Shown here piece by piece: positions 90 through 18,140 of a stretch of 32,000 nt of DNA. Source of the stretch: Candidatus Nanoarchaeia archaeon (GTDB lineage: Archaea; Nanobdellota; Nanobdellia; Woesearchaeales; JANQNC01). Numbering within the stretch: the stretch's first letter is position 1; each line of letters begins with the position of its first letter. Both the position numbers and the translations under genes were made by a program. The notes under the pieces are model-generated. The model was not told where the DNA came from, did no database searches, and saw only the letters and a list, made by a program, of their open reading frames with translations. Where the stretch lies: NCBI GenBank assembly GCA_028279745.1, contig JANQNC010000001.1, positions 900,001 through 932,000 of the forward strand, in the 5' to 3' direction.

Positions 90-94
90 TAATA

Positions 95-436
95 ATGAGG
101 GAATTTGCATCATCAAAAATACACAAAGCGAACGTAACGCAAGCAGACTTGGACTATGTAGGTTCAATTACTATAGATCAAGATCTGATGGACAAAGCAG
201 GTCTTATGGAAAACCAGAAAGTGCTGGTTGTAGATAACACAAACGGAGCAAGACTAGAAACTTATGTAATAGTCGGAGAAAGAGGGTCTGGTGTTATATG
301 CATGAATGGAGCAGCAGCACATCTGATAAAAAAAGGAGATGAAATAATCATAATAGGTTTTGACATTGCAGAAAAACCTGTTGAGATGAAAAACATCTTA
401 GTAGATAAAGACAACAATTTTGTTCGTTATTTATAA
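95..436 (+). CDS. panD: Aspartate 1-decarboxylase proenzyme (pyruvoyl-dependent)
   Basis: The 113-aa product is collinear with bacterial PanD. It has [15 protein letters not shown] with the Gly23-Ser24 self-cleavage site (Ser codon 164-166), plus [21 protein letters not shown]. Confidence 0.9.
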
Positions 437-452
437 TTTTTTTATTTAGGGG

Positions 453-1991: not shown

Positions 1992-1992
1992 A

Positions 1993-3051: not shown

Positions 3052-4217
3052 GTTTAACAATTGAAAGGATAAGTACTTTTGAAGAGTTTAAGAAGTTAGA
3101 ACCCATTTGGAACACTTTTTTAGAGAAAACACCTGCAGATACTGTTTTTTTGACATATGAATTCTTAAGTGTGTGGTGGGAAGCATTTGGAAAAGACAAA
3201 AAGATGCTTGTTCTGTTAGTCAAAGATTCTGGAAAATTACTGGGGATAGCGCCTCTGATGATTGAAGGGGGAGATGTAAAGTTTATGAGAGATGTTCATT
3301 CTTACTATTTTGATTTTATAATATCTGAAAAAAACCAAGAGGTTTTGTTTGCAATTTTTAGTTATTTAGAGAAGAACATAGAGTTTGATAAGCTTATTTT
3401 AGAGGACGTACCCTTAGATTCAACAAATTTAGGCATGATTAAGAGTAAGAAATTTAAAAAATCAGGTTTTATTTTTTTAAAGTTTAATGAGCGAGTATCT
3501 CCTGTAATTAAGATAGAAGAAGAATGGGAGAACTATTATGGTGGTATACCAAAAAGTAGAAGGAAAAGCATAAGAAATAATCTTAGTAAACTTTCTAGAA
3601 TTGGTAACGTTAGATATTGTGATATTGTCAATAAAGAGTTGTTGCCCAGACTTATCAAAGATTTTTTCTTAATCGAGAGAGGTTCGTGGAAGCATACAGT
3701 AGGAAGATCAGTAACCGGAGATAAACAACAAATGTTTTTTTATAAGACGCTTGCAGAAAGAATGCAAGATAAAGGGCAGATATGTCTAGATTTTTTATTC
3801 GTAGACGAAAAACCTGCCTCTTTTGTGTATGACCTTGTTTACAAAGATAAGAGGTACAATCTAAAAACCTCTTTTTTGGAGGATTATGATGGGGCAGGTC
3901 CCGGCACTTACCTTGCTAAAGAAGTTGTTCAAAATAGTTTTAAAAAGGGACTAGATTGTTTAGATTTTTTGGGTGTTATGGATTCTAGGAAAAAATTATT
4001 CTCCAACTCTGAGAGGGCTGCAGAATATATTTATTTGTATAAAAGCACTATTAAAAATAAAGTTTATGTTTTGTTCAACCAACTGGTTTGGAAAAGATTG
4101 GGGAGGTGGGAGATTATTCAAAAGATAAAAAATAAACTTCTTGGTAAATTTCCCACTGAAGAAAAGAATAGAGAAGAATTCAAAAAATTACAAAATGAAA
4201 GACTTAACCAAGATTAG
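3048..4217 (+). CDS. FemAB/CelD/BioF2-like GNAT-fold acyltransferase
   Basis: The 389-aa product has an N-terminus (EEFKKLEPIWNTFL...FLTYEFLSVWWEAFGK...LGIAPLMIE) typical of CelD/BioF2-like acetyltransferase-domain proteins. It is paralogous to 26006-27079. ATGA overlap with the upstream gene. Confidence 0.6.
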   Translation: MSLTIERISTFEEFKKLEPIWNTFLEKTPADTVFLTYEFLSVWWEAFGKDKKMLVLLVKDSGKLLGIAPLMIEGGDVKFMRDVHSYYFDFIISEKNQEVLFAIFSYLEKNIEFDKLILEDVPLDSTNLGMIKSKKFKKSGFIFLKFNERVSPVIKIEEEWENYYGGIPKSRRKSIRNNLSKLSRIGNVRYCDIVNKELLPRLIKDFFLIERGSWKHTVGRSVTGDKQQMFFYKTLAERMQDKGQICLDFLFVDEKPASFVYDLVYKDKRYNLKTSFLEDYDGAGPGTYLAKEVVQNSFKKGLDCLDFLGVMDSRKKLFSNSERAAEYIYLYKSTIKNKVYVLFNQLVWKRLGRWEIIQKIKNKLLGKFPTEEKNREEFKKLQNERLNQD

Positions 4218-5208
4218 AAAAGAGATTCTTGAGTTTTCAAGAAAGACGTTTCCTGGAGAGGAAAGTAGAGAATGGACCTACTTTCAAAATAATTATGTGA
4301 ATCATCCCGATAAAAAAAGTCCAAAGTACACTGCAATTTTTGAAGGAGGCAAGATGATAGGTTTTTTGGGATATATTCCTATGAGATTAAAAATTGGAAA
4401 AGTTTTTTATAAATCTGGCTGGCAGCTTGACCAGTTTGTTTCAGAAGAAAAAAGAGGTAAAGGGATAGGCAGGAAGATACTTAACGAGGCATATTCGCTT
4501 TTTGATATAAACCTGGCAATTAAAAACAGTGAAGATGCTATAAGAATATATACTAAACAAGGGTGGAAGTATCATAGTATACCTCTTTATCTTAAAATAA
4601 TAAGTTTTAGAAGTTATCTCCCTAGGTTCTTGGAAAAGGTGGGTCTTGTTTATGTTCTGGATAAGGTTTACCAGACCCTATTTTGTAATAAGGAGAGTGA
4701 ATTAGATTTTGAAAGATTTGGTGAATGTGGGGAGGAGCTCAGAGAAGTATGGAAAAAGAATAGTAAGCACTATTCTCTTGTTAATGAAAGGGATAGAGAT
4801 TATCTCAACTGGAAATTTAAGAACTATGAAAAGTATTATGTAATAAACAAAGGAACTATTGAAGGTTACATAATCCTGAAGACAGAAAGAAAAGGGAAAA
4901 AGAAAATGCTGAGTATAATAGACTTTTTTATGGATCCAAATAAGAAGGGGATCATCAATTCTGTTATAAATTTCTTAAATAAAAAAGCAATAGACGTTAA
5001 TGCGGACGTAATACGGTTTTATATTTCAGACAAAAGATTAGTAAAACTTTTCAGAAAGCAAAAATTTATTAAACGGGAAGATGATTTGAGACTGATGTAC
5101 TATTCAAAAAAACATCTTGAACTGAACAGAAAGTATGAGGGTGTGTTAGTTACACTTTATGATTCGGATGGTGAGCCTTTCTTTTACAAAGAAGGAAAGA
5201 GAGATTAA
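4195..5208 (+). CDS. GNAT family N-acetyltransferase with a C-terminal extension
   Basis: Acetyl-CoA motif A QFVSEEKRGKGIGRKILNEA. I prefer the ATG at 4195 over the TTG at 4141 in the ORF track. It overlaps the upstream gene by 23 nt. Confidence 0.65.
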   Translation: MKDLTKIRKEILEFSRKTFPGEESREWTYFQNNYVNHPDKKSPKYTAIFEGGKMIGFLGYIPMRLKIGKVFYKSGWQLDQFVSEEKRGKGIGRKILNEAYSLFDINLAIKNSEDAIRIYTKQGWKYHSIPLYLKIISFRSYLPRFLEKVGLVYVLDKVYQTLFCNKESELDFERFGECGEELREVWKKNSKHYSLVNERDRDYLNWKFKNYEKYYVINKGTIEGYIILKTERKGKKKMLSIIDFFMDPNKKGIINSVINFLNKKAIDVNADVIRFYISDKRLVKLFRKQKFIKREDDLRLMYYSKKHLELNRKYEGVLVTLYDSDGEPFFYKEGKRD

Positions 5209-5212
5209 GAAA

Positions 5213-6598
5213 ATGTCATTACCTAAAAAAATATTAATCTTTTTTCTTTTAACTATCTTTATTCTTCCTGCTACTGCGATGGGTTTTGTCTTGTTGTGGG
5301 GTGCTTCTTACCAGAACCAAACTAAACTTTTAGTTGACACCGTAGATTATTATAATGATGGTTCTAGGACAGAGGTAGTACTGGTCGATGAAGGAGTATA
5401 TGTATATGATGCAAACGGCGCCTTATTGTGCAGTAATCCTGAAAGCGGATTTGTTGAAGGTAGAAATGGTAAGTGGATTACTAGCGTGTCTGATGTTTAT
5501 TCGGGGTTTTATGATCATGTCTTTGTCAGCGGAGATAGTGGGGAGAGTGCACCCCGAACTTTAACAAGAGTGTTCAGCAAGGATTGTGAGTTGGTGGAAG
5601 ATTTTCAAAAAAGCTATGTCTACACACCTTATTTGAGAGATGTTGACAGTGATGGCTGCGATGAACTGATATATGGTGGAAAAGCTTTAGATTTGGACCG
5701 TACAAAAAAAAGTAACGAATGGGTACAGTTATGGGATACTGAAGTGCCAAAGTTTATGGATGAAGTTTATGACTGGGATTTTGAGAATGGATTTTGTTAT
5801 AATGAATATATAGAAAATATAGTTTGTGTTAATGGATCTGGAAATGTTAAGTTTAGAAAGAAACCCTTAAACGGTTCCCGTAACATTGCTGTTGGGGATT
5901 TTGATGGAAAAGGAATAAAGAATGATGTAGCAACTGTGGGTGTAAAACCATCAGAAAAAGTACTTCGTCTTTATATAGGGGATGAATACGGTAAACAGTT
6001 AGTTTTAGTAGAAGAAAAGGGAAAGTCTACAAGTTTGCCAAGAGAGCTTGTGGCTGGGCAGATTGATTATACTTCTAAAACAGATGAGCTTGTTTTTGGT
6101 GCCGGCGGGGTAATAAATGCCTATGATTCTGAAGGACGTCTATTATGGAACTACGCTCCTGAAATGGGGGGTTATGCAGATAACATTATCATAGCTGATG
6201 TTGAGAATGATGGTAAGAACGAAGTTGTTGTAGCACAAGGTAGTAAGATCTATGTGTTGGATAATGAGGGGGGGCATTTATTTAACATGACTGTAAATGG
6301 AGTTTCGTTTAACTGGCACGGCACACACCCAACAATGCAAGTTCAAGATATTACTGGGGATTGTTGTAAAGAAATATTGTTATCAACTAATTCAGGGGAT
6401 TTTTATGTTTATGGGTTGGAAGAATGCGGAGTTAATGAATGCGATGAAGGAGATTTATTAAGAAAAAACAACTGTTTTAATGAAAATCAATCCCCTTTCA
6501 GAAATTATGAGGTAAAAGAGGAAAGTTTGTGGGATGTTATTCTACATTTATTTAAAGATAGATTTTATTTGATAAAGAAACTAGTTGAAATCAACTAA
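5213..6598 (+). CDS. Secreted FG-GAP/VCBS-like beta-propeller repeat protein
   Basis: From the ATG at 5213 the N-terminus MSLPKKILIFFLLTIFILPATAMG looks like a signal peptide. Calcium-loop-like repeats follow: DVDSDGCDELIYGG, VGDFDGKGIKNDVATVG, IADVENDGKNEVVVAQG and VQDITGDCCKEILLS. Confidence 0.65.
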   Translation: MSLPKKILIFFLLTIFILPATAMGFVLLWGASYQNQTKLLVDTVDYYNDGSRTEVVLVDEGVYVYDANGALLCSNPESGFVEGRNGKWITSVSDVYSGFYDHVFVSGDSGESAPRTLTRVFSKDCELVEDFQKSYVYTPYLRDVDSDGCDELIYGGKALDLDRTKKSNEWVQLWDTEVPKFMDEVYDWDFENGFCYNEYIENIVCVNGSGNVKFRKKPLNGSRNIAVGDFDGKGIKNDVATVGVKPSEKVLRLYIGDEYGKQLVLVEEKGKSTSLPRELVAGQIDYTSKTDELVFGAGGVINAYDSEGRLLWNYAPEMGGYADNIIIADVENDGKNEVVVAQGSKIYVLDNEGGHLFNMTVNGVSFNWHGTHPTMQVQDITGDCCKEILLSTNSGDFYVYGLEECGVNECDEGDLLRKNNCFNENQSPFRNYEVKEESLWDVILHLFKDRFYLIKKLVEIN

Positions 6599-6623
6599 GT
6601 AGTAGGATAAGAAGGAATCAAAA

Positions 6624-8096
6624 ATGTTAAAAGATCTAACCCGAGTTGGAAAACACAGCATCATCTATGGTTTAGGGGGTGTTGTGCAGAAACTAGTTGG
6701 ATTTTTAATGGTGCCTGTATACACAAGGTATCTTAGCCCAACAGATTATGGGGTGGCTGCACTAATCATGTTTACTGTAACTTTGGCAGGTATGTTATGG
6801 AACAACGCGTTGAACAGAACAATTTCAAGATTTTATTTTGATTATAAACGACAAAAGGAAAGAAACGCTGTGATAAGCACAAGCTTAGTAATCCAAACTA
6901 TATTTTCAGTTATCGTTTCAGCTGGAGTAATAATGTTTAGTTCAAAAATATCTTATCTTTTGTTTGACACTAGCAGATATGCATTATTTATCAATCTTGC
7001 GTTCATAGCCTTCTTGTTACAGTCTATTATAGAGATACCAATGACACTTTTAAGGTTAGTTGAAAAATCTGTCTTTTATTCGGTTATTAGTGTTGTACGT
7101 CTATTTGTTGCATTATTCTTGAACATTTTACTCATAGTTTTTTTGGATATGGGCCTTTTGGGTATATTTGTTAGTGGGGTAGTTACATCAGGACTTGTAT
7201 TCTTCTTACTGGTTCCAAAAACAATTTTCGAAACAGGTATTAAGTTTTCTATGAAAAAAGCAAGACACATGATGAAGTTTGCACTTCCCCTTGTCCCAGG
7301 GGGGCTGTTAATATTTGTGCTAATGAGGGCAGATGTTTTTTTATTACAAAAGTTGTCGACAACTGCGCAAGTGGGATTGTATAACTTGGGGATACAGTTG
7401 GGGACAGTGCTGATATATCTTATAGAACAGCCTTTTTTCTTGATATGGTACCCTTTTGTGTACTCTAGCTTAAAAAAACCAAAAATAAATAAAGTATTTT
7501 CAAGAATGCAAACTTATTTCTTTTTTATACTTATATTTTTTAGCTTATGCCTGGCAGTTTTGATTAAGCCAGTATTAAGTTTTCTTGTGGGGCCTGACTT
7601 TTTTGAAGTGTATAAGGTAGTTCCATTAATAGTTCTAGCATTTTTCTTTAGACCTCTTTCAGACTTTTTTAAGACGGGTTTACAGATAAAAAAGAAGACA
7701 AAAATGATTCCTTTAATTCTTGGGGTGGGAGTAATAATCAATCTTGCGTTAAACTTTATTTTAATACCGGGTATGGGTTATATGGGGGCAGCTGTTGCAA
7801 AATTATCAGCTTTTGCAGTTATAGCGTTAGTCGCTTATTTTATCTCTATAAAAATTTATAAAATAACACCTGAAAAGAGAGTTATTTTTGCTTTAATAGT
7901 TGCGATTGTGTACTATTTTGTGAGTTTGTTGATATCTGTCGAATCGATAGTGTTACAAATTACATTGGATGTGCTGTTTTTAATGACATTTCCTTTAGTA
8001 CTTTATCTGCTAAGAGTATTTAGGAAAGATGAAATTAAGAAAACAAAGGAGATTTTGAAAAAAATAAAGAACGTAAGGTCTTCAAAGATCAAATAA
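6624..8096 (+). CDS. Wzx-like oligosaccharide flippase (MOP/polysaccharide biosynthesis protein family)
   Basis: The 490-aa product is very hydrophobic and multi-spanning, with about 12-14 predicted helices by eye. It sits among glycosyltransferases. Confidence 0.8.
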   Translation: MLKDLTRVGKHSIIYGLGGVVQKLVGFLMVPVYTRYLSPTDYGVAALIMFTVTLAGMLWNNALNRTISRFYFDYKRQKERNAVISTSLVIQTIFSVIVSAGVIMFSSKISYLLFDTSRYALFINLAFIAFLLQSIIEIPMTLLRLVEKSVFYSVISVVRLFVALFLNILLIVFLDMGLLGIFVSGVVTSGLVFFLLVPKTIFETGIKFSMKKARHMMKFALPLVPGGLLIFVLMRADVFLLQKLSTTAQVGLYNLGIQLGTVLIYLIEQPFFLIWYPFVYSSLKKPKINKVFSRMQTYFFFILIFFSLCLAVLIKPVLSFLVGPDFFEVYKVVPLIVLAFFFRPLSDFFKTGLQIKKKTKMIPLILGVGVIINLALNFILIPGMGYMGAAVAKLSAFAVIALVAYFISIKIYKITPEKRVIFALIVAIVYYFVSLLISVESIVLQITLDVLFLMTFPLVLYLLRVFRKDEIKKTKEILKKIKNVRSSKIK

Positions 8097-8220
8097 TCTA
8101 TAAAGAGTTAGCTTGTTTAAGATATGACACTAGTAAGGGATTATTTATAATAATTTTTCTTATTTAAACGAAGGTAAAAAGTTATAAAACACTGTTAAAA
8201 ATGGGTTATTAACTGTTTAT

Positions 8221-9360
8221 TTGATGACTAAAATGGGAAAGATAAAAATATTGAGGATTGTTGATGAGTTTTTTAGAGCAGGTCTCCAGCAAGGTGTAAG
8301 AAACATAATATGTAACACAGAAACTAAAAAGTTTGAGAATGTAATCGTAAGTTTAAAAGGAGTAAATGAAGATATGCTGATCAAAGGAGTGAAAACTTAC
8401 GTTCTTAACAAAAAACCTGGTTTAGGGTGGGAGTTGCCTTTAAGAATAGCAAGGATAATCAAAAAAGAAAGACCTCACATACTGCAGATGCATAATATGG
8501 ATTCTTTGCAGCAAGGAATGCTTGCAACGTTGTTGTCTGATGTTCCAATAAAGATCTATGTCGATCACAACTCTTTTGAAAACAAACGATCAAAAAAAGC
8601 AGTACTGTTGAGCAGAATTCTTTCAAAAAGACTTGACAAAGCAATAACTGTGTCTGATGAAGTCCGAGAAAAAGTTGTTAAGGAGTTAGGGGTTAAAAGA
8701 AAAAAGGTAAAAACTATATTGAATGGGACTGACATAAGTAAGTTTGATAAAAAAATCAGTTTAGCTGGGTTAAGAAGTGAATTAGGAATAAGCAATAAAG
8801 ACAAGATAGTAACAATTGTGGCAGGCCTTAGAAAAATAAAAGATCATCTAACTTTGATCAAGGCATTTTCAACTGTTGTAAAAAAGGAAAAGAATGCAAA
8901 GCTAATAATAGTCGGGGTGGGTGAGGAAAAACCAAGAATCCAACAAACTATAGAAGAAGATATTTTGGAGAATAATGTGTTATTATTGGGATTAAGAGGA
9001 GATGTACCTGAAATTTTAGGAGTTACAGATGTTTCGGTTATATGTTCTTTATCTGAGGGGATTTCGCAAACAATAATGGAATCAATGGCAGCATCAAAAC
9101 CAGTTGTCGCAACAAATGTAGGGGGCAATCCTGTTTTGGTGGAAGAAGAGGTTAATGGACTACTTGTCCCTGTCAAGTCGTCTGATAAGTTAGCAGAGGC
9201 AATAGCGAGGTTGTTAGAAAATAAAAATCTAAGAGCGAAGATGGGAAAAGAAGGAAGAAAAAAGATTGAAGAATATTTTAATGTACAAAGAGTTTGCAAG
9301 GATTATGAGACATTGTATGTTGAGTTACTTAATAAAAAAGGAGTAAAATGTGCGGAATAG
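8221..9360 (+). CDS. Glycosyltransferase family 4 (GT-B)
   Basis: C-terminal E-x7-E region: SLSEGISQTIMESMAASKPVVATNVGGNPVLVEEEVNGLLVP. The start is ambiguous among TTG 8221, ATG 8224 and ATG 8233. Confidence 0.85.
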   Translation: MMTKMGKIKILRIVDEFFRAGLQQGVRNIICNTETKKFENVIVSLKGVNEDMLIKGVKTYVLNKKPGLGWELPLRIARIIKKERPHILQMHNMDSLQQGMLATLLSDVPIKIYVDHNSFENKRSKKAVLLSRILSKRLDKAITVSDEVREKVVKELGVKRKKVKTILNGTDISKFDKKISLAGLRSELGISNKDKIVTIVAGLRKIKDHLTLIKAFSTVVKKEKNAKLIIVGVGEEKPRIQQTIEEDILENNVLLLGLRGDVPEILGVTDVSVICSLSEGISQTIMESMAASKPVVATNVGGNPVLVEEEVNGLLVPVKSSDKLAEAIARLLENKNLRAKMGKEGRKKIEEYFNVQRVCKDYETLYVELLNKKGVKCAE

Positions 9361-11210
9361 TCGGAGTTTGGGATTTTAAGAATAAAGTTGACAAAAAAAG
9401 ACTTAACCAGATGAGAGACTCTTTAGAACATAGGGGGCCAGACGATAAAGGAACATATGTGGATGGGAGTATAGGGCTTGCGCAAAGAAGGTTAAGTATT
9501 ATTGATCTTTCCAAGGCAGGCAGACAACCGATGAGCAATGAGGATGGAAATATATGGATAACTTATAATGGAGAAATCTATAATTTCAAAGAGATAAAAG
9601 AAGATCTTGAGAAAAAAGGACACAAGTTTGAATCAGATACTGATACAGAAGTGATCATACATGCATACGAAGAATATGGTGAAAAATGTGTCAGTATGTT
9701 TAATGGCATGTTTGCATTTGCCATATGGGACTCAAACAAAAAAGAAATTTTCTTGGCAAGAGATAGAATTGGTCAGAAACCTTTAGTTTACTATAAAGAT
9801 CAAGATAAGTTTGTTTTTGCTTCAGAACTAAAAGCGATACTTCTTTATCCTGCGGTCGATAAGACAATAGCTGATGAAGCCATAACTCACTATCTTAGTT
9901 TTGGATATGTGCCAACGCCAAAGTGTATATTTGAGAAGATGTCAAAATTACCTCCAGGGCATTATGGGGTTGTTGATAAAAAAGGGAATGTTAAGATTGA
10001 ACAGTATTGGGATGTACATTTTTATAAGACTATAAAAAAATCAGAAAAAAGTCATTGTAAAGATATAGTCAAAGATTTGTATGAAGCTACAGAAAAAAGA
10101 ATGATATCTGATGTTCCGCTTGGAGCATTCTTATCTGGGGGGATAGACAGTAGTGCAGTTGTAGCAATGATGTCAAAAATATCTGACCTGCCTGTAAAAA
10201 CGTTTTCAATAGGTTTTGAAGAACAAGACTTTGACGAAACAGTATATGCAAGACAAGTTGCAGACTTATTTGGAACAGACCATCGAGAAGAGATAGTGAA
10301 GATGGATGCGATAAACATAATGGATGATCTAGTGTGGCATTATAACGAGCCGTATGCGGATTCATCAGCAATACCTACATTTTATCTGTCAAAAATGACA
10401 AGAAAACACGTTACTGTTGCGTTAAGTGGTGATGCGGGGGATGAAAGCTTCTTGGGTTATCCAAGATATGTCCCAGATAAGTACGAGATAATGTCAAAAG
10501 TGACGCCTGGTTTTTTGAAACCTTCAGTTTCTAGTTTTGGTAAAATGTTTTTCTCACAAGGTCATAAAATACCTTTATTCCAACAGATAGGGAGAAAATT
10601 TGACCTTCTTACGATGAAAGAAGAAGAACAATATTTTGAATGGCTATCAAATTTTAACACATACTACAAAAACAAAACAATGAACCAAGTAAAGGAGAGT
10701 TCTAAACAAATTCTTTTACAAAAGGCAGACAAGTACAAAGCACCCATGCTAAAAAAACAGTATTTTGATTTTAAGCACTATCTGCCTGATGATATCCTTG
10801 TAAAAGTAGATATAGCATCGATGGCACACAGCTTAGAAGTGAGAAGTCCTTTTTTGGATCATAATCTAATAGCGAGCGCAAGCAGAATACCTTGGAAAGT
10901 GAAAATGAAGAACTTGGAGAAAAAGTATCTTTTAAAGAGAGCGTTATCTGGAATATTGCCAAAAAATATTCTTTACAGGAAAAAAGCAGGATTTGGTGTT
11001 CCCTTAGTTCATTGGTTTAGGAAAGACTTGAAAGATGTGAGTTATGATGTTTTGCTTAGCAAAGATGCAAGTAGCAGAGGGTATTTTAATAAGAGCTTTA
11101 TCAAAAAATTACTGGGCAGCCATAATAGAGGCGCTGACCACAGCCACAAGATATGGAGTCTATTGTTCTTAGAGAAATGGTTTAGAAAATTTATGGATGG
11201 GGAAAAGTAA
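9348..11210 (+). CDS. asnB: Asparagine synthase (glutamine-hydrolysing)-type amidotransferase
   Basis: N-terminal MCGIVG (Cys2 nucleophile of Ntn amidotransferases). The synthetase domain has a PP-loop LSGGIDSS. 620 aa. It overlaps the upstream GT4 by 13 nt. Confidence 0.9.
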   Translation: MCGIVGVWDFKNKVDKKRLNQMRDSLEHRGPDDKGTYVDGSIGLAQRRLSIIDLSKAGRQPMSNEDGNIWITYNGEIYNFKEIKEDLEKKGHKFESDTDTEVIIHAYEEYGEKCVSMFNGMFAFAIWDSNKKEIFLARDRIGQKPLVYYKDQDKFVFASELKAILLYPAVDKTIADEAITHYLSFGYVPTPKCIFEKMSKLPPGHYGVVDKKGNVKIEQYWDVHFYKTIKKSEKSHCKDIVKDLYEATEKRMISDVPLGAFLSGGIDSSAVVAMMSKISDLPVKTFSIGFEEQDFDETVYARQVADLFGTDHREEIVKMDAINIMDDLVWHYNEPYADSSAIPTFYLSKMTRKHVTVALSGDAGDESFLGYPRYVPDKYEIMSKVTPGFLKPSVSSFGKMFFSQGHKIPLFQQIGRKFDLLTMKEEEQYFEWLSNFNTYYKNKTMNQVKESSKQILLQKADKYKAPMLKKQYFDFKHYLPDDILVKVDIASMAHSLEVRSPFLDHNLIASASRIPWKVKMKNLEKKYLLKRALSGILPKNILYRKKAGFGVPLVHWFRKDLKDVSYDVLLSKDASSRGYFNKSFIKKLLGSHNRGADHSHKIWSLLFLEKWFRKFMDGEK

Positions 11211-12339
11211 AGTGAAGATATTATTCTTATGCCACAGGGTTCCTACACCTTACAGAGGGAGCAGCAGGACAGCTTTGAATGTGATAAAACATCTATCAAA
11301 GAAGCACGAAGTTCATGTTGTTTATCTAAGTTTTAGCAGGAAAGATTTGTTGTGGGCTAAAGAGCTAGAAAAGTTTTGCAGTAAAGCATCAACAACAATA
11401 ATAAAAAGACCTGTGTTGGGTGCAGTTGGAAGCATTTTTTCATTAAGGCCAAGCTCTTTTGGATATTTTTACTCTAAGAAGCTGAAAGAGATTGTAGATA
11501 GTATAGATTGCGATCTTATATTTATAAGATCATCACAGATGGCAATGTATGTTTCTGAAAGAAAAGAAAGAAAGATAGGTTTTATAGGTGATGCGGATTC
11601 AGAAAAATGGAAAACATATTCAAAAGAGAAACTTTTCCCATTAGGGCCGTTTTACTATCTCGAATATCTCAAAGTAAAGAGATGGGAGAAAAAGATCGTT
11701 AAACAGTGTGAAAAGATAATAGTTATCTCGGAGCCAGAGAAAGAATTATTGAGTAAAGATGCAATAGTGATGCCCAACGGAGTAAAGATACCAAAACTGA
11801 AAAAAACAGTCAAAGCGAAAAGTTCAGTTATCTTCTTGGGAGTTATGGACTACAGACCAAATGTTGAAGGAACTATATATTTTCATGATGAGATACTTCC
11901 TTTGATAAAGAAGCAAGTTCCTGATGTAAAATTTGTAGTTGCAGGGATGAATCCTGCGAAAAAACTGAAAAAACTGAAAAATGCTACAGTTACAGGGTTT
12001 GTAGAAGATATGACTTCTTTAGTTGCAAGCCAGTCAGTTTTTGTGTCTCCGTTAAAGACTGCAAGAGGGGTTCAGAACAAGATACTTGATGCGATGGCAG
12101 CAGGTGTTCCAGTAGTGAGCACAAGTCTAGCAAATCAAGGGATATTGGCAGAGGATGGAAGAGAGATATTGATCGCAGACACGCCTGTAAGATTTGCTGA
12201 GAAAGTTATGAGGTTATTGAATGATAAAAAATTAAGAGAAAAGATTTCATTAAATGCTAAGAGATTCATAAAAAAGAAGTTTGATCTAGATACAAACTTA
12301 AAAATGTTGGACAATATAGTTTATGGGGTGAAGAGTTAA
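11197..12339 (+). CDS. Glycosyltransferase family 4-like (GT-B)
   Basis: ARGVQNKILDAMAAGVPVVSTSLANQGI is the donor-binding region of GT-B retaining transferases. It overlaps asnB by 14 nt. Confidence 0.8.
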   Translation: MGKSKVKILFLCHRVPTPYRGSSRTALNVIKHLSKKHEVHVVYLSFSRKDLLWAKELEKFCSKASTTIIKRPVLGAVGSIFSLRPSSFGYFYSKKLKEIVDSIDCDLIFIRSSQMAMYVSERKERKIGFIGDADSEKWKTYSKEKLFPLGPFYYLEYLKVKRWEKKIVKQCEKIIVISEPEKELLSKDAIVMPNGVKIPKLKKTVKAKSSVIFLGVMDYRPNVEGTIYFHDEILPLIKKQVPDVKFVVAGMNPAKKLKKLKNATVTGFVEDMTSLVASQSVFVSPLKTARGVQNKILDAMAAGVPVVSTSLANQGILAEDGREILIADTPVRFAEKVMRLLNDKKLREKISLNAKRFIKKKFDLDTNLKMLDNIVYGVKS

Positions 12340-13517
12340 TGAGGGTGTTATTTTTGTGTAAGGATGTGATCTTCCCGATAGATTCAGGGGGGAGGATAAG
12401 AACTTATAATATGCTTAAACAGCTAAATAAGAAGTTTGATTTAGATATAATCTCTGTTGTGTGCCCAGGAGAAGAGAAATACATCCCTGAAATGAGAAAG
12501 TTATGTAAGAATTTTGTTTATGTGAGGTCAAGGAAATCTTCTAAACAAGGTTTAAAATTTTATTTGCATGTATTTAGAAATCTATTCTCAAGATACCCTT
12601 ATACCATGGCGCATGACTATAAGAGAGACTTGAAACGAAATATAAACAGAATCTATAAGAATTATAATCTGTTCATCTGTGACTTTCTGTTCCCAGCTCT
12701 TAACTGCTTAGATGTAAAGATAAAAAAAGTACTGTTTCAGCATAATGTTGAATTTATGGTTTTGAAAAGGCATTTTCAGAACACAAAAGGCATAAAAAGA
12801 CTTATATGGTGGTTACAGTACATAAAAGCAAAAAGAATGGAGAAAAAGATTACAAGGCTATTTAACTATGTAATCTGTGTATCGGAAAATGATGTCAATA
12901 TTCATAGACGTGTATTTGGTGTGAAAAATACAGATTATGTAGACCTTGGGGTGGATGTAAAAGAATATGAAAGGAAGGGTTTTGAAAGAGAAAAAAAATC
13001 AATAGTTTTCACAGCAGGTCTTGACTGGAGACCAAACCCTGATGGAGTCAAATATTTTAACGATAAGATATTTCCCAGACTTGAAGGATACAAGTTTTAT
13101 TGTGTCGGAAAAAATCCAGATAAGGAGATTAGAAAACTGAATAGAAAAGATTTTGTGGTTACTGGGCGAGTGCCAGATGTTAAACCTTACTTGTTTAGGG
13201 GAGAGGTTTATGCAGTGCCACTGAGAATTGGCGGCGGAACAAGAATAAAAATATTCCAAGCGATGGCTGCAAAGATCCCTGTTGTTTCGACAACAATAGG
13301 TGCAGAAGGATTGCCAGTAACTGACGGAGAGAACATATTGATAAGAGATTCACCCAAAGAGTTCGCTGAAGCGATAGATAAACTGAGTACTGATAAAAAA
13401 CTGTATAACCGAATTAAAAATAATGCGTATAACCTAGTTAAGAATAACTATTCTTGGGAAAAAATATCAAAGAAATTTATTGAGATATGTGAAACTGTTG
13501 TGGGGATAAGAAAATGA
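12339..13517 (+). CDS. Glycosyltransferase family 4-like (GT-B), paralogue of the previous gene
   Basis: GGGTRIKIFQAMAAKIPVVSTTIGAEGLPV, and an N-terminus similar to 11197-12339. TAATG overlap of 1 nt. Confidence 0.8.
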   Translation: MRVLFLCKDVIFPIDSGGRIRTYNMLKQLNKKFDLDIISVVCPGEEKYIPEMRKLCKNFVYVRSRKSSKQGLKFYLHVFRNLFSRYPYTMAHDYKRDLKRNINRIYKNYNLFICDFLFPALNCLDVKIKKVLFQHNVEFMVLKRHFQNTKGIKRLIWWLQYIKAKRMEKKITRLFNYVICVSENDVNIHRRVFGVKNTDYVDLGVDVKEYERKGFEREKKSIVFTAGLDWRPNPDGVKYFNDKIFPRLEGYKFYCVGKNPDKEIRKLNRKDFVVTGRVPDVKPYLFRGEVYAVPLRIGGGTRIKIFQAMAAKIPVVSTTIGAEGLPVTDGENILIRDSPKEFAEAIDKLSTDKKLYNRIKNNAYNLVKNNYSWEKISKKFIEICETVVGIRK

Positions 13518-14308
13518 AATTTGTAAAAGGTTTAATCTTAAAGTTTTTGCCTGAAAAAGTTTTGATTTGGTTGAAGAAAAAGTATTACGCAAGAACTCTT
13601 TCAAGACTTTCATTAAGTGGAAAGTTGGCTTATTTTAAAGTTGTTAGAGAGCTGGTTGTACCTGGAGATAGGGTTATAGACATTGGTGCTAATATAGGTT
13701 ATTGCACGAAAGTAATGTCTAAATTTGTTTCAGAATCTGGAAAAGTGTACAGCATTGAGCCTGTAAAGCAAACCTTCGAGTTACTAAAAAGTAATATTGG
13801 GAGTTTTAAGTTAAGAAATGTTAAACCATTGAGGTTTGCAGTTTCTAACAAAGAAGAGATGGTAAAAATGGAAATACCTATCTATGAATCTTTGGGGAAA
13901 AACTATTATGAAGCGAGATTGGTTGGTGATAAGGAAGAGTTTAAAGACATTTTCAGTGTTCAGTCAAAAAAGATCGACTCTTTATTTTTGGATGAGAATA
14001 TATCTTTCATCAAATGTGATGTTGAAGGTCATGAACTTGAAGTTTTTCAAGGGGCAAAGCAGTTTTTGAAAAAAGTAAAACCTGGTTGGTTGGTTGAAGT
14101 GATAAGCGATCCAGAAGAAAAAGGTTCTCCAGCAAACCGTCTTTTTAAATTGGTCAAAAAAGAAGGGTATGGGGCATATTGGTTTAACAGCGAGGATAAA
14201 TCACTAAACAGGTATAAAAAAGGGACGAAAGCAATCGACTTTTTCTTTTTGACCAAAGAACATATAAATAAGTTGATGAGTTCAGATGAAATAAAAGTAA
14301 AAGGTTAA
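13514..14308 (+). CDS. FkbM-family SAM-dependent methyltransferase
   Basis: SAM motif VIDIGANIGYCT, then IKCDVEGHELEV, which is typical of FkbM-type methyltransferases. ATGA overlap upstream. Confidence 0.75.
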   Translation: MKFVKGLILKFLPEKVLIWLKKKYYARTLSRLSLSGKLAYFKVVRELVVPGDRVIDIGANIGYCTKVMSKFVSESGKVYSIEPVKQTFELLKSNIGSFKLRNVKPLRFAVSNKEEMVKMEIPIYESLGKNYYEARLVGDKEEFKDIFSVQSKKIDSLFLDENISFIKCDVEGHELEVFQGAKQFLKKVKPGWLVEVISDPEEKGSPANRLFKLVKKEGYGAYWFNSEDKSLNRYKKGTKAIDFFFLTKEHINKLMSSDEIKVKG

Positions 14309-14309
14309 G

Positions 14310-15524
14310 ATGAACATAAGTGTTTTTGGATTGGGTTATGTGGGGATAGTAACATCTGCAATACTTTCAAAGAAGCATAAAGTTATAGGTGTAGATGTAA
14401 ATCCGACAAAAGTCTCAATAATGAACCAAGGCAGATCACCTATAATTGAGGAAGGGGTGAGCGAGCTAGTAAAAAAAGGGATAAAGTCTAAAAGGCTTAA
14501 AGCAACTTCTGATCCAAAATATGCTGTAATGAACACAGATGTTTCTGTGATTTGTGTCGGGACACCTTCTGAAGAGTCGGGAGGACACGATCTCTCTTAT
14601 CTTAATAATGTTATGGAAGAGATATCAGAGCTACTTAAGGAAAAGAAAAAGTATCATCTTATTGTAATAAGATCTACAGTAACTCCTGGGACTTCTCTTG
14701 AGATGAAAGAAAAGTATTTTCAGGGGATGAATGTTGGGTTATGTTTTAACCCAGAGTTTTTGAGAGAAGGCGTCGCGGTTAAAGATTATATCAATCCTCC
14801 TTTCATAATTGTTGCATGCACAGACAAGAAAGCAGTTAAGCTTATGAAAGAATTTTATAAAGGGATTAAATCAGAGTTTATTGTTGCACCATTTCAGGAA
14901 GCAGAGACAGTAAAGATGTTGTGTAATGTGTTCCATGCATATAAGATTGTGTTTGCGAATGAAGTGGGCAGGTTTTCGGAAGCATATGGTGTGAGTGGAA
15001 AAAGATTAATGAGCTTGTTGTGCAGAGATAAAAAGCTAAACATCTCAAGTAAGTATCTTATACCTGGTTTTGCTTATGGGGGGAGTTGCCTACCAAAAGA
15101 TCTAAGAAATTTACAGTATCTTGCAAGAAAGAAAGATCTAGATTTACCTGTAATAAACAGCCTTGATATTTCAAATGAGAAACACATACACAACGCAATA
15201 AGAAAAATAGAGTCATTTGATGTGCGGAGTGTGGGTTTTGTAGGATTAAGCTTTAAACCAGGTACAGATGATTTGAGAGAAAGTCCGCAAGTTAGGTTGG
15301 TTGAATACTTTATCGGAAAAGGGTATGATGTTAAAATATTCGACAAAGATGTTTCACTTGCAAAACTGATGGGTGCAAACAAAGCATACATCGAGAAAGA
15401 AATACCTCACATAAGCTCGCTTCTTGTGGATAGATTGGATGAGTTAGATGAGTGTAAAACTATAGTTCTTAATAGGAATGTTAAAAAAGATTTTAGCAAT
15501 AGGAATGTTGTTGATTTAAGATAA
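14310..15524 (+). CDS. Nucleotide-sugar 6-dehydrogenase (UDP-glucose/GDP-mannose dehydrogenase family)
   Basis: N-terminal Rossmann FGLGYVGIVTSA, a catalytic-cysteine motif GFAYGGSCLPKD, and LSFKPGTDDLRESP. Confidence 0.9.
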   Translation: MNISVFGLGYVGIVTSAILSKKHKVIGVDVNPTKVSIMNQGRSPIIEEGVSELVKKGIKSKRLKATSDPKYAVMNTDVSVICVGTPSEESGGHDLSYLNNVMEEISELLKEKKKYHLIVIRSTVTPGTSLEMKEKYFQGMNVGLCFNPEFLREGVAVKDYINPPFIIVACTDKKAVKLMKEFYKGIKSEFIVAPFQEAETVKMLCNVFHAYKIVFANEVGRFSEAYGVSGKRLMSLLCRDKKLNISSKYLIPGFAYGGSCLPKDLRNLQYLARKKDLDLPVINSLDISNEKHIHNAIRKIESFDVRSVGFVGLSFKPGTDDLRESPQVRLVEYFIGKGYDVKIFDKDVSLAKLMGANKAYIEKEIPHISSLLVDRLDELDECKTIVLNRNVKKDFSNRNVVDLR

Positions 15525-15607: not shown

Positions 15608-16768
15608 ATGGTGGTTATAGATAACAAAGGAAGACTTTTTGGGAAAGTAAATGTTATAGATATTATTCTGGTTGCACTTGTTATTCTTGGGGTGATTGTT
15701 GGTGTGAAGTTTATTAGTGATCAACTTGAACCTCCCGAGTATGAAGCAACATACCTTATTTTAGAAGTTGAAAGAGTCTCTTCCTACATACTTGAGACTG
15801 TGAAGGAGGGAGATGTAGGTTATTATAGGGGCATACCTGTACTAAAAATAATAAATTTTACAGCAATACCTAAATCAAAAGAGGAAGGGAACTATGAAGT
15901 TTACCTTACCTTTAAAGTTTTGTCCACAAATAACGGCGGAGATTTAAAATTTGCAGATGGCCAAGAGATAAGGGCGGGCGCACCCATCGAGCTTATAACA
16001 GAAAACAGCAGGTTTTTAGGAAAAATACAAAAAGTATCTCAGGATGTGGGCGATTTACATTTACCAGACTATAAGATAGTAAAAAAAGTAATTGGTGTAG
16101 AAGTGAGTAATCTGGTGTCTGATGAGATTATAAGATCAATTGTTAAAGGAGGGGTAAATGAGTATGCAGGTATGAACATAACGAACATAGTTGACTATTC
16201 AGCTTTTCCTTCAGTTACGAGAGAAGGATACAGTCAGTTGTACTTGATTGTTGAAGTATTAGCAATATCTAAAGATGGAAGATTGATCTCGATAGAAAAC
16301 GATAACCCTTCAAATGATATTAAAATAGGGAATTACGTGAATATACACACAGATGATGGTTATTTTAGGGGGGTCATAGAACTGGTTGGAGATAACACCT
16401 CTGAGTTTAGAGAAGCTTATGATAAACGAGTTATGGGGGTATCTGTAATATCTCGAGGGGTGTATCCTGAACAAGGAGTTAATTTTGTGAACGTGGGTGA
16501 TGTAGAGTTAGATGCTAGCGGAGAAGTAATTGTTAAGGTAGTAAACAGAGAAGAAATAAGTTCTAGTCTAGTCTCTGTGAGCGATTCAGGAAAGGTGTTT
16601 GTTGTAAAAGACCCGGTTAGAAAGGATATTACGTTAGATGCAGATATAACTGTACTAAAAAAAGGAGATGACTACTTCTTTAAAGACGAACTTGTCAAAA
16701 TTGGTGGGAAAATAACATTTTTACCGAGGAATAATTTAGTTGAAGGAGTAGTAATAGACATAAAATGA
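15608..16768 (+). CDS. Membrane-anchored DUF4330-like protein with three tandem domain copies
   Basis: The N-terminus IDNKGRLFGKVNVIDIILVALVILGVIV matches my memory of the DUF4330 signature plus a TM anchor. Three beta-rich segments of about 100 aa follow, ending FLGKIQKV, FRGVIELV and VEGVVIDI. Confidence 0.55.
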   Translation: MVVIDNKGRLFGKVNVIDIILVALVILGVIVGVKFISDQLEPPEYEATYLILEVERVSSYILETVKEGDVGYYRGIPVLKIINFTAIPKSKEEGNYEVYLTFKVLSTNNGGDLKFADGQEIRAGAPIELITENSRFLGKIQKVSQDVGDLHLPDYKIVKKVIGVEVSNLVSDEIIRSIVKGGVNEYAGMNITNIVDYSAFPSVTREGYSQLYLIVEVLAISKDGRLISIENDNPSNDIKIGNYVNIHTDDGYFRGVIELVGDNTSEFREAYDKRVMGVSVISRGVYPEQGVNFVNVGDVELDASGEVIVKVVNREEISSSLVSVSDSGKVFVVKDPVRKDITLDADITVLKKGDDYFFKDELVKIGGKITFLPRNNLVEGVVIDIK

Positions 16769-17244
16769 AACGTCTAGCTGAAACTAGCTTTACATTTCAA
16801 TCTTTAAACAAATTGAACGATCTTATTGTCATGGTAGTTTCTTTCTCTAGGTACAGTGTACTGTTTAGATTATTAGACTGCATTGAAAGAAAGATAAGCA
16901 ATATGTTCGGTGTTACTAAATTGGCGGAAATTAAAAGCGGCAGTAAGATTTTAGGTTTTTTTGAAGGGGATAATAAAGAGACATTTGAGGTTGCCAATAA
17001 AGGAGTTATCTACTCCATACTTAGTTTTGCAGGGAAGGTTGTGCACTTTTTTGTTGGATGTATCTTAAACCTAGTTCCTGAAAGAGTTTTAGGTATGAAG
17101 ATGATAAGAGTGATGGGTGTTTTTATATTCGGATTGATAGCTGCGAATAGCATAATCTCATCTGGAGAATTAAATTTACAAGGGGTTATAGTAAGAGGCA
17201 TCATTATGGCAATATCTTTATTCTTGATCTGGAGGTTTAAATGA
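16765..17244 (+). CDS. Small hypothetical membrane protein
   Basis: 159 aa with hydrophobic segments (VIYSILSFAGKVVHFFVGCIL; VMGVFIFGLIAANSII; GIIMAISLFLIW). ATGA overlaps at both ends suggest translational coupling. Confidence 0.5.
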   Translation: MKRLAETSFTFQSLNKLNDLIVMVVSFSRYSVLFRLLDCIERKISNMFGVTKLAEIKSGSKILGFFEGDNKETFEVANKGVIYSILSFAGKVVHFFVGCILNLVPERVLGMKMIRVMGVFIFGLIAANSIISSGELNLQGVIVRGIIMAISLFLIWRFK

Positions 17245-17810
17245 AAGCTCAAGACGTGATAAAAAAGATCGCACCCGTTTTTTTAGTACTAGTAAGTATG
17301 TTTGTTATTTTTATAGTTTTAATTATGGCTCAAATGGGAATTTTTACTTGTGCACCTGGAGAAGTTGGTGAGTGTAATCTGTTGGATGGAGAAAAAGGCA
17401 TAAGGTTATGTTCTTCTTCGGGAAAACTAAGCAAATCCTGGAGTGTATGTTTACCTTATGAATGCAACAGACTGGACGCCACAGAGAAGTGCGAATTGAC
17501 TGAAGGATTAGTTGGAATAAAAAAGTGTGTTCCTCGGGGTGAAGTTGGCAAAGTTTGGAGTGAGTGCGTTTTACACGAATGCGAGTATGACGGTAAGATC
17601 TTAGAATGTGGTTTTTCTGACGGAAGTAAAGGAATCCAGAACTGTGTGAGTTTTAAAGGAATTGGCACTAAATTAAGTGAATGTATCCTGTATGAATGTG
17701 AATATGCTTTTCAGGAAAAAGCCTGTATTTTAAGTAGTGGCTTAGAAGGCAAACAAATCTGCCAAAGCCATAGTGGTGGCTTGGGCAAAAAATGGAGTGA
17801 ATGCCAGTAA
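17241..17810 (+). CDS. Membrane-anchored Cys-rich tandem-repeat protein (unknown family)
   Basis: N-terminal anchor APVFLVLVSMFVIFIVLIMA, followed by four repeats of about 31 aa with a fixed cysteine spacing. Confidence 0.6.
   Translation: MKAQDVIKKIAPVFLVLVSMFVIFIVLIMAQMGIFTCAPGEVGECNLLDGEKGIRLCSSSGKLSKSWSVCLPYECNRLDATEKCELTEGLVGIKKCVPRGEVGKVWSECVLHECEYDGKILECGFSDGSKGIQNCVSFKGIGTKLSECILYECEYAFQEKACILSSGLEGKQICQSHSGGLGKKWSECQ
17349..17807 (+). repeat. Four tandem coding repeats of about 39 aa (about 115 nt), pattern C-x7/8-C-x11-C-x12/13-C-x4
   Basis: R1 CAPGEVGECNLLDGEKGIRLCSSSGKLSKSWSVCLPYE. R2 CNRLDATEKCELTEGLVGIKKCVPRGEVGKVWSECVLHE. R3 CEYDGKILECGFSDGSKGIQNCVSFKGIGTKLSECILYE. R4 CEYAFQEKACILSSGLEGKQICQSHSGGLGKKWSEC. 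Confidence 0.7.
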
Positions 17811-17822
17811 CTCCACTAAATC

Positions 17823-17830
17823 TTTATAAA
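17823..17830 (+). promoter_or_regulatory. Archaeal TATA box for the tRNA gene
   Basis: TTTATAAA is centred about 27-28 nt upstream of G17855, the first base of the acceptor stem. That is the usual archaeal TATA-to-start spacing. Confidence 0.55.
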
Positions 17831-17874
17831 TAAAATACTTGTTCTTTAATGTATGAACCTGTAGCGCAGCCTGG

Positions 17875-17964
17875 CAACTGCCACTGTCAGTTGACACCAG
17901 GAGGCGACTCCTAGTGCTTCGCACCGGAGTCCCCTGGGAACACTTGATCGTGTAAGTTGGGCAA
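17875..17964 (+). other. tRNA intron 1 (90 nt), D-loop, after G18G19
   Basis: BHB motif: central helix G17869-C17962, C17870-G17961, C17871-G17960, U17872-G17959. The 3-nt bulges are GG|C (17873-17875) and AA|A (17963-17965). The inner helix pairs AACU 17876-17879 with AGUU 17955-17958. Boundaries could shift by 1-2 nt. Confidence 0.65.
17904..17933 (+). repeat. 30-nt hairpin module, copy 1 (inside intron 1)
   Basis: GCGACTCCTAGTGCTTCGCACCGGAGTCCC matches copy 2 at 28 of 30 positions. It folds as GACUCC/GGAGUC plus GUGC/GCAC, with an asymmetric UA/C internal loop. Confidence 0.9.
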
Positions 17965-17983
17965 ATAGCGCAATAGCCTCCTA

Positions 17984-17999
17984 AACTTAAGTTGAAGAC
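17984..17999 (+). other. tRNA intron 2 (16 nt), canonical 37/38 position
   Basis: The anticodon stem AUAGC/GCUAU flanks 23 nt, and only the 6+1 split gives U33 and a purine at 37 (loop CUCCUAA). The BHB is relaxed: the central helix CUCC/GAAG has one C-A mismatch, and the bulges are UA|A and AC|A. Confidence 0.7.
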
Positions 18000-18021
18000 A
18001 GCTATAGGTCGAGGGTTCGAA

Positions 18022-18117
18022 ACAGCTGGTTACGCTCAGCTGGCACGCAAAAAGCGACTCCTAGTGTTACGCACCGGAGTCCCTTGTGATTTGTCAGTTA
18101 GTAACTGTTGACGAAAG
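18022..18117 (+). other. tRNA intron 3 (96 nt), T-loop 59/60
   Basis: Near-ideal BHB. The outer helix is the T-stem GAGGG/CCCUC, and the central helix pairs UUCG 18016-18019 with CGAA 18112-18115. The bulges are AA|A (18020-18022) and AG|U (18116-18118). Splicing yields the canonical T-loop UUCGAAU. Confidence 0.75.
18054..18083 (+). repeat. 30-nt hairpin module, copy 2 (inside intron 3)
   Basis: GCGACTCCTAGTGTTACGCACCGGAGTCCC. One of the two differences turns a C-G pair into U-G; the other is in the apical loop. The copies are 150 nt apart in direct orientation. Confidence 0.9.
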
Positions 18118-18140
18118 TCCCTCCAGGTTCGTATTTTAAG

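Follow-up and report, generated by a model that had tools for sequence, protein, structure and literature searches.

Introduction

Archaeal tRNA introns bounded by a bulge-helix-bulge (BHB) motif are able to change place. In Thermoproteales, such introns have been transposed, with up to three in one tRNA gene, and the mechanism is described as unknown but thought to act at the DNA level (Fujishima et al., 2010, as summarised in PMC4090602). Since that transposition was inferred, it has been a question by what route archaea acquire tRNA introns and relocate them, and no mobile unit or intermediate has been identified so far. For Caldiarchaeum subterraneum, a model in which integrating mobile elements disrupt tRNA genes was proposed (Sugahara et al., 2012, PMC3293823), and tRNA genes with several introns are also known from DPANN archaea (PMC5829648). 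Here a tRNA-Arg(CCU) gene with three introns is described from a stretch of 32,000 nucleotides of Candidatus Nanoarchaeia archaeon (contig JANQNC010000001.1, positions 900,001 to 932,000 of the forward strand), hereafter the window. Its first and third introns share a hairpin module that was found in at least 25 distinct places in genomes and metagenomes of DPANN archaea (Woesearchaeota/Nanoarchaeia). With a probability of about 0.6, we regard this module as a small GC-rich mobile hairpin element that is nested in BHB introns and removed with them. A literature search returned no description of the hairpin, of its occurrence outside introns, or of insertion intermediates.

The locus resembles the Thermoproteales case (PMC4090602) in that related introns occupy different positions and different tRNAs (D-loop of Arg-CCU and Arg-UCU; T-loop of Arg-CCU, Ala-GGC, Leu-UAA and a class II tRNA), with BHB junctions adapted to each site. 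There are differences as well: the host is an AT-rich DPANN/Woesearchaeota archaeon and not a thermophilic crenarchaeon, a discrete covarying hairpin is shared while the intron arms have diverged, and the hairpin is not confined to tRNA introns but occurs in leaders, trailers, antisense positions and spacers, with flanking repeats and with empty sites in close relatives. In common with Caldiarchaeum, where population-level heterogeneity concerns one tRNA locus, intron gain and duplicated tRNA fragments are tied to insertion of mobile DNA; the Caldiarchaeum element, however, is 1.8 kb long and encodes a recombinase (PMC3293823), whereas the non-coding inserts described here measure 70-90 nt and have a conserved hairpin at their centre. 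A further likeness is to the palindromic mitochondrial GC clusters and double-hairpin elements, such as yeast GC42, which are short, GC-rich, hairpin-forming, non-autonomous and sporadic in an AT-rich genome, and which insert into spacers, introns and variable RNA regions, with putative duplication of the target, signs that the palindrome is constrained, and merger and shuffling of hairpins (PMC4478555). Those clusters belong to a eukaryotic organelle and have neither a link to tRNA BHB introns nor a sequence relationship to the module, so the similarity is one of behaviour alone (PMC4478555).

The hairpin is a searchable marker: through a covariance model, it joins intron copies, non-intron copies, duplicated targets and empty sites in relatives, which makes the question of intron gain and movement testable. 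It is also a candidate new structured RNA motif, and the loci of its family offer snapshots of the growth and spread of archaeal tRNA introns. Read as a mobile element, it would extend both the Thermoproteales picture (PMC4090602) and the Caldiarchaeum model (PMC3293823).

A tRNA-Arg(CCU) gene with three introns

Excision of the three introns (Table 1) leaves a 75-nt product that ARAGORN recognizes as tRNA-Arg(CCT) with a normal cloverleaf. This in silico splicing, together with a scan of the window, reproduced the positions and lengths (90 and 96 nt) that a first-pass annotation of the sequence had assigned to the long introns, and also the repeat of 28 identical positions in 30 that it had noticed in them. 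In the unspliced DNA, ARAGORN found no tRNA and Rfam gave no match at the gathering score, which explains why tRNA finders miss such genes in DPANN genomes. As is characteristic of archaeal BHB introns, removal restores the cloverleaf, and two 3-nt bulges flank a 4-bp helix with symmetric cuts.

In intron 1, the central helix pairs 17869-17872 (GCCU) with 17959-17962 (GGGC) and the inner helix pairs 17876-17879 with 17955-17958; the bulges GG/C (17873-17875) and AA/A (17963-17965), where the slash marks the cut, place the cuts at 17874/17875 and 17964/17965. These helices are supported by covariation. Across the D stem, central helix and inner helix of the window gene and of three genes at other loci (loci are numbered L001 onwards; here L031, L017 and L021), pairing stands at 98.1% and six pairs are changed on both sides, a result equalled by none of 500 shuffles, with slid controls being 21-40% paired. 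The central helix takes the forms GCCU/GGGC, GCUU/GAGC, GCCU/AGGU and GUCU/GGGU in the four genes. In intron 3, the T-stem GAGGG/CCCUC is followed by a central helix of 18016-18019 (UUCG) with 18112-18115 (CGAA), and the bulges AA/A (18020-18022) and AG/U (18116-18118) place the cuts exactly at 18021/18022 and 18117/18118. The intron 3 junction is identical in L015 and L020 and has one mismatch in L008 and in L031. Both long introns are more stable than their shuffles (z of -3.0 and -2.45). From this anatomy, the splicing endonuclease (EndA) would be expected to cut the introns from the pre-tRNA at both 3-nt bulges, followed by exon ligation. No EndA gene lies in the 32-kb window; DPANN EndAs with an L3 loop have been reported alongside many disrupted tRNA genes (PMC5829648).

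The window has a GC content of 34%, and the best named relatives of its proteins belong to Woesearchaeota/Nanoarchaeota. Judged from these sequences, the host is a Woesearchaeota-type DPANN archaeon.

The hairpin shared by introns 1 and 3

The shared 30-mer, GCGACTCCTAGTG(C/T)T(T/A)CGCACCGGAGTCCC, stands on the plus strand at 17904-17933 and 18054-18083; it had no match in 100 dinucleotide shuffles of the window, even with up to three mismatches. The repeat reaches 36 nt at 89% identity. Each copy folds into a 34-nt hairpin consisting of a basal helix P0, a C.C mismatch, a helix P1, a 2x1 internal loop, a helix P2 and a 3-nt loop. The two 34-nt copies differ at four positions, all of them structure-neutral: both sides of a pair in P0, which is G-C in one copy and A-U in the other; one side of a pair in P2, where U-G stands in place of C-G; and one loop base. 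Folding of both copies thus agrees with the first-pass annotation that the C-to-T substitution keeps a U.G pair and the T-to-A substitution falls in the loop, and adds the compensatory G-C/A-U change, which lies outside the 30-mer (columns 14/47 of alignment A2).

Copy 1 scores 63.5 bits (E 2e-20) with the covariance model R1 and folds at -13.5 kcal/mol; the values for copy 2 are 57.7 bits (E 3e-18) and -12.1 kcal/mol. The isolated hairpins of both copies have z of about -3.3 against shuffles. Their GC content is 63-67%, against 34% for the window, and they stand at or within two bases of the family consensus. The model detected no further copies in the window or in the loci, so that the 32-kb window holds only these two. 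In minimum-free-energy folds the hairpin caps the rod of the intron, and the fold comparison, better than that of shuffles, bears out the earlier view that both introns fold into rods with this cap. The paralogy of the two introns was also upheld, by the module and by both arms, which are loosely related; the 5' arms can be aligned, and better than had been noted.

Other identities for the hairpin were considered and rejected. Introns 1 and 3 contain no TGATGA or CTGA and no C', D' or ACA boxes, in line with the first-pass finding of no C/D or H/ACA boxes and no k-turn in the module. The sequence features that define integron attC sites, group II domain V and origin boxes are absent. Rfam 15 gave no match at the gathering score in the window or in nine loci, and its E-value mode, applied to the tRNA region and the L020 intron, gave only chance-level matches.

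The Logan assembly of SRR20820740 is interrupted in intron 3, where the end of one contig, at about 18049 (L001), overlaps the start of the next, at about 18021 (L030), by about 29 nt directly 5' of module copy 2. The break could stem from heterogeneity between strains, from the A5 run or from a further genomic copy of this 30-mer.

A covarying family in DPANN archaea

Searches beyond the gene with hairpin patterns showed that the module occurs elsewhere, in other genomes and metagenomes. At least 20 other loci of other organisms carry the hairpin, often base-for-base identical to copy 1. In species-representative genomes, a degenerate pattern found nine archaeal places, of which six belong to Woesearchaeota metagenome-assembled genomes (MAGs), one to a Nanoarchaeia MAG and two to a 'Methanosarcinales' MAG with 40% GC (CAYGYA01; L003 and L009), the contigs of which are probably mis-binned DPANN. 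The L003 and L009 contigs have a tRNA-Ala/GluRS arrangement and the module in common with Woesearchaeota, and a partial RpoA' labelled Methanosarcinales is 91% identical to Woesearchaeota RpoA'. The metagenome scan gave 14 loci of a variant in which P2 is longer by one base pair (5-bp P2); the pattern used there and in the first viral scan had 11 N between TAG and CCGGAGTC, against nine in the window type, so this count refers to the variant and the window-type hairpin itself lay outside the metagenome scan. Five matches in high-GC bacteria (L002, L004, L005, L012 and L013) lie inside coding regions and were set aside as chance, and three scans of viral contigs, with both hairpin variants and with the AT-rich 5' arm, gave no matches.

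Among 21 distinct copies, pairing stands at 98.9% and 7 of 14 pairs are changed on both sides; none of 500 shuffles equalled this, and slid controls were 30-52% paired. P0 and P2 were free in the search patterns, and P1 (GACUCC/GGAGUC) was fixed by them. Covarying forms of P0 include AGGC/CCCU, AUGC/CCAU, AAGC/CCUU and AAAC/CUUU, and those of P2 include GUUGC/GCAAC, GUUAC/GUAAC and GUCAU/AUGAC. In the 21-copy alignment, the module strand tolerates U.G pairs and shows no A.C pair. Most copies have hairpins that are 0.8-1.0 identical, also where their intron arms are near background. Five copies were found by position and not by pattern (L014b, the D-loop and T-loop copies of L031, the L016 fragment and L039). 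Canonical P1 is present only in L039, and the C.C mismatch is kept in all but the L016 fragment, which is not assessable.

Contexts of the copies

The tRNA-associated copies comprise 12 distinct copies in tRNA sense orientation and three antisense. Besides the window gene, the module occurs in D-loop introns of tRNA-Arg(UCU) at the same position as intron 1 (L017, L021/L018) and in T-loop 59/60 introns of tRNA-Ala(GGC) (L015), tRNA-Leu(UAA) (L020), a class II tRNA (L008) and L007. Long introns vary little in length, those of the D-loop measuring 88-91 nt and those of the T-loop 89-96 nt. The three introns of L017 stand at exactly the positions of those in the window gene, its T-loop intron being 33 nt long and free of the module. 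Outside introns, copies were found in 5' leaders, where 10-11 nt of the tRNA 5' end are repeated (L016, L022); directly 3' of a tRNA, as trailers (L019, L003); and, in antisense orientation, at the 3' ends of two distinct tRNA-Thr genes, where the repeats comprise 19-24 nt of the tRNA 3' end (L024, L029). A copy antisense at the 3' end of a tRNA of no assigned identity (L026) has an imperfect repeat that is not significant. The remaining copies lie in spacers of protein genes, mostly antisense (L009, L010, L014 twice, L039; also L006, L011 and L028).

The 5' insertions of L016, L022 and L035 were also tried as BHB introns, but only a 4-nt palindrome pairs and outer helices are lacking; they are more likely leaders. 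On the minus strand of L016, the tRNA upstream of the module-bearing tRNA has a 46-nt T-loop intron with ACGTTCGGTGCTTC, which is identical to part of the reshaped T-loop hairpin of L031 described below and probably represents a module in decay. In L003, L006, L015 and L026, perfect AT-rich palindromes (type CAAAAA-N-TTTTTG / AGATTTTTGCGAAAAATCT) are repeatedly found close to the module and to tRNA genes; they may represent a second family of small hairpin elements.

A syntenic ortholog with reshaped hairpins

L031 shows synteny with the window: the neighbouring debranching-enzyme homolog has 65% identity, and next to it come a glycosyltransferase gene and a GatE-type gene in the same order. 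Its tRNA-Arg(CCU) gene has long introns at the same D-loop and T-loop positions, so the paralogy of the two introns is older than the split between the window and L031. Both hairpins are altered and still paired (GAUCUCGC-UAC-GCGAGAUC and GACGUUCGGUGCUUCGCACCGAAGUC). In the T-loop hairpin, P2 and the flanks are kept and P1 has changed from UCC/GGA to UUCG/CGAA, and in the D-loop an unrelated perfect 8-bp stem stands between the same flanks. Across positions, the four Arg(CCU) introns have arms with mutual similarities of 0.55-0.76; the 5' arm of window intron 3 is 0.76 similar to the D-loop arm of L031 and 0.71 to its T-loop arm.

These comparisons bear on several earlier suggestions. Selection on pairing, proposed from the two window copies, is borne out by the covariation among copies and by the pairing kept in L031. 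Intron duplication or transposition within one tRNA gene had also been proposed. The mobile part of this proposal gained ground, as the module was found in other tRNA introns and elsewhere, but its restriction to one gene did not hold: L031 shares both long introns, and intron 1 groups with the D-loop introns of tRNA-Arg(UCU). Regarding substitutions in relatives, the altered hairpins of L031 respect the predicted pairing, whereas some orthologous sites lack the module.

The 37/38 intron of L031 (L031:2496-2564) is 69 nt long, compared with 16 nt in the window, and has a short terminal stem, with a C-box-like CUGAUGA close to the 5' end and a CUGA close to the 3' end; these features suggest that it encodes a C/D-box small RNA (sRNA) in a tRNA-Arg. 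Synteny is patchy in further relatives: no tRNA lies upstream in L032, where the neighbouring protein is 61% identical, and tRNA-Ala is absent from the vicinity of GluRS in L034 and L036.

Empty, short and filled sites

The T-loop site of tRNA-Ala(GGC), beside genes for a metallophosphatase and GluRS, is seen in several states. It is without an intron in L035, holds introns of 29 nt in L003 and 34 nt in L037, a 90-nt intron with the canonical module in L015, and an intron of about 190 nt with several hairpins in L033. The L037 intron corresponds to the two ends of the L015 intron minus its central part. Since module-less short introns, or no intron, are found at orthologous sites, the module is not needed for splicing as such. 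One hairpin of the L033 T-loop intron (minus strand, ~640-900) is module-like, GTAGGACATTCACTTCGTGAAGTCCTAC, and receives no score from the covariance model.

The segment that precedes the module in long introns repeats the 3' arm of the same intron, for example GCAAAAAATCTCGTAA versus GCAAAAACTCACGAAA in L015 (p = 0.017-0.07 in six of nine introns). From the sequence, this looks like a duplication of the old 3' arm made at insertion, and a duplicated 3' arm gives the 5' segment of the intron two alternative pairing partners. In L035, a 78-nt insert of the same subfamily follows tRNA position 20, and its flanks carry tRNA positions 1-20 as a 20-nt repeat. Direct repeats of 10-24 nt at the flanks are significant in L016, L022, L024, L029 and L028. 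At tRNA inserts, the repeats always span from the insertion point to the transcript end (+1-4 nt), on the 5' side in L016, L022 and L035 and on the 3' side in L024, L029 and L015 (~390-520).

Presence and absence also alternate between protein genes. The rpoB/rpoA' spacer carries the element in L010 and only a few bases in L038, whose RpoA' is 92% identical; in L039/L040 (88% identical), a copy follows rpoA' instead, and was found without a pattern. In L038, the rpoA'/rpoA'' spacer (L038:3186-3316) has no module; another GC-rich imperfect hairpin (GGCCCTCGCCGACTGAGAGCC) stands directly after the stop codon.

Mobile element, small RNA, clamp or DNA site?

The distribution of the hairpin, its two orientations, the empty sites in close relatives and the duplicated flanks fit a small mobile element. 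Such an element would spread as DNA to sites that tolerate extra RNA, namely the apical parts of tRNA introns, leaders, trailers and short gene spacers. On entering a short hairpin intron, it would lengthen it to about 90 nt and cap its rod, and selection would then retain it as a stable hairpin. Because the family is shared and the ortholog has both introns, the window introns are best seen as old paralogues with the same element and not as a recent private duplication. A recent duplication or gene conversion between two introns of a single gene, with nothing wider, would agree with the 28/30 identity of the window copies, as against two L031 copies that differ from each other, and the intron 3 5' arm, about equally close to both L031 arms, is compatible with some exchange between the sites. 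As a complete explanation, however, it is refuted by the at least 20 other loci with the hairpin and by the presence of both introns in the ortholog, and we give it almost no weight.

Several observations weigh against the mobile-element reading. Only 1-2 exact copies were seen per MAG, which is a low copy number. The element has no linked transposase, integrase or reverse transcriptase. The insert ends have no terminal inverted repeats, and neither these nor a fixed-length target duplication, the marks of miniature inverted-repeat transposable elements, were found. The flanking repeats measure 10, 10, 11, 19, 20 and 24 nt and are lacking from most intergenic copies, and no known transposition chemistry fits repeats that are variable or absent; repeats of 10-24 nt that end at the transcript end agree neither with a target-site duplication of fixed length nor with one att core. 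Copies with arms diverged to near-random share the exact 26-nt hairpin without a change, which points to purifying selection on the sequence, and so to function, more than to neutral selfish DNA. The invariance of P1 must itself be read with care, since only one of the five copies found by position has the canonical form and the invariance is therefore partly an artefact of ascertainment. The moving enzyme, the variation in repeat length, the ending of repeats at transcript ends, the C.C mismatch and the conservation of the hairpin are not explained by a mobile element. A more specific version, which we advance tentatively and would not call probable, is an unrecognised archaeal non-autonomous element that would build and enlarge BHB introns by entering tRNA genes and introns already present, the neighbouring tRNA or intron segment being duplicated in the process. 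In that case, the loci would represent consecutive stages in the gain of an intron, from an empty site through a short intron and an insertion with a duplicated tRNA end to a 90-nt intron. Duplicated segments that end at tRNA transcript ends could point to an RNA or complementary DNA intermediate.

The conservation of the hairpin leaves room for another reading, in which it would be the protein-binding core of a host small RNA or ribonucleoprotein that hitch-hikes on tRNA transcripts (introns, leaders or trailers) or comes from small genes of its own, with release by EndA, RNase P or RNase Z. The varied contexts would then be relocatable sRNA genes. A parallel exists in the archaeal tRNA-Trp intron, which encodes a C/D-box sRNA released by BHB splicing, often as a circle, and which also has counterparts in free-standing genes. 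Unlike that intron, those of the window lack C, D, C' and D' boxes as well as a k-turn, and no guide function can be proposed for them. The tRNA-Trp case is mentioned in PMC12558985. P1, the UA/C loop and the C.C mismatch are identical although the arms are saturated with changes; the sense orientation prevails among tRNA-associated copies (12 versus 3); a T-run directly follows the closing stem on the module strand in L009 and L010; and the boxed 37/38 intron of L031 (CUGAUGA...CUGA) suggests that introns of this clade can host functional RNAs. Yet the copies of L024, L026, L029, L010, L039 and L014 are antisense to every neighbouring gene or tRNA, and the copies have neither a conserved genomic position nor a promoter in common. 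Moreover, both hairpins are replaced or reshaped in L031, close relatives lack a copy at the same site, and no likeness to Rfam families, k-turn, C/D or H/ACA motifs was found. On balance, a host small RNA appears unlikely, though worth keeping in view. Less credit is due to the idea that the hairpin is a thermodynamic clamp only, in which any stable GC-rich apical hairpin would help the BHB to form in an AT-rich genome and the shared sequence would reflect intron descent. Pairing is kept by the substitutions, the hairpin caps the rod in minimum-free-energy folds, and in the L031 D-loop the module is replaced by an unrelated perfect 8-bp hairpin between the same flanks, all of which agree with a clamp; extra-intron and antisense copies, flanking repeats and empty orthologous sites are left unexplained by it, and short introns without such a hairpin work at the same T-loop position (L003, L017, L037). 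This makes a pure clamp improbable. The palindrome might instead act as DNA, either as a recombinase binding or attachment site at tRNA genes or as a single-stranded hairpin for a Y1/HUH transposase of the REP or IS200/IS605-derived kind. Insertions with duplicated tRNA termini do resemble att duplications (L024, L029, L035), and an imperfect hairpin, asymmetric and present in both orientations, would permit strand-specific recognition. However, the repeats match each host tRNA and differ in length, which makes a single att core unsuitable; IS200/IS605-type insertion leaves no duplication, whereas duplications are present here; no GTAG tag or recombinase gene lies nearby in the loci read, and viral contigs gave no matches; and U.G pairs are tolerated on the module strand while A.C pairs are not seen. 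A DNA site is accordingly very unlikely in our estimation, and the small mobile hairpin element remains the reading that we prefer.

Other features of the locus

Hairpins equivalent to hairpin 1 of intron 1 (Table 1), different in sequence, are present in L031, L017 and L021.

Table 1. Features of the tRNA-Arg(CCU) locus, in window coordinates.
Feature	Position	Strand	Description	Basis
Putative archaeal promoter, TATA-like box	17823..17830	+	TTTATAAA, ~25 nt 5' of tRNA start	direct reading, promoter geometry
tRNA-Arg(CCU) gene, three introns	17855..18131	+	exons 17855-17874, 17965-17983, 18000-18021, 18118-18131	in silico splicing, ARAGORN
Intron 1	17875..17964	+	90 nt, D-loop, between G19 and A20	BHB read directly, covariation
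Hairpin 1 of intron 1	17875..17893	+	CAACUG/CAGUUG; rivals the BHB inner helix for the same 5' nucleotides	direct reading
Module copy 1	17902..17935	+	P0 AGG/CCU, C.C mismatch, P1 GACUCC/GGAGUC, internal loop UA/C, P2 GUGC/GCAC, loop UUC	
Intron 2	17984..17999	+	16 nt, canonical 37/38; relaxed BHB, one C.A mismatch in central helix	
Intron 3	18022..18117	+	96 nt, T-loop 59/60	textbook hBHBh' in minimum-free-energy fold of 18008-18126
Hairpin 1 of intron 3	18023..18042	+	CAGCUG/CAGCUG	direct reading
Module copy 2	18052..18085	+	P0 AAG/CUU, C.C mismatch, P1 GACUCC/GGAGUC, loop UA/C, P2 GUGU/GCAC (U.G), loop UAC	
Putative archaeal terminator, T-run	18134..18137	+	3' of tRNA	direct reading

The downstream glycogen-debranching-type gene starts at ATG 18141 and not at TTG 18108, which overlaps the tRNA. 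Upstream of the tRNA, the window encodes a 189-aa cysteine-rich protein (17241-17810) and a DUF4330 protein (15608-16768); the former has repeated C..C..GxKG..C modules and no Pfam match. Positions 1-15500 of the window hold a polysaccharide biosynthesis cluster with glycosyltransferases, an Asn synthase-like protein and UDP-glucose dehydrogenase.

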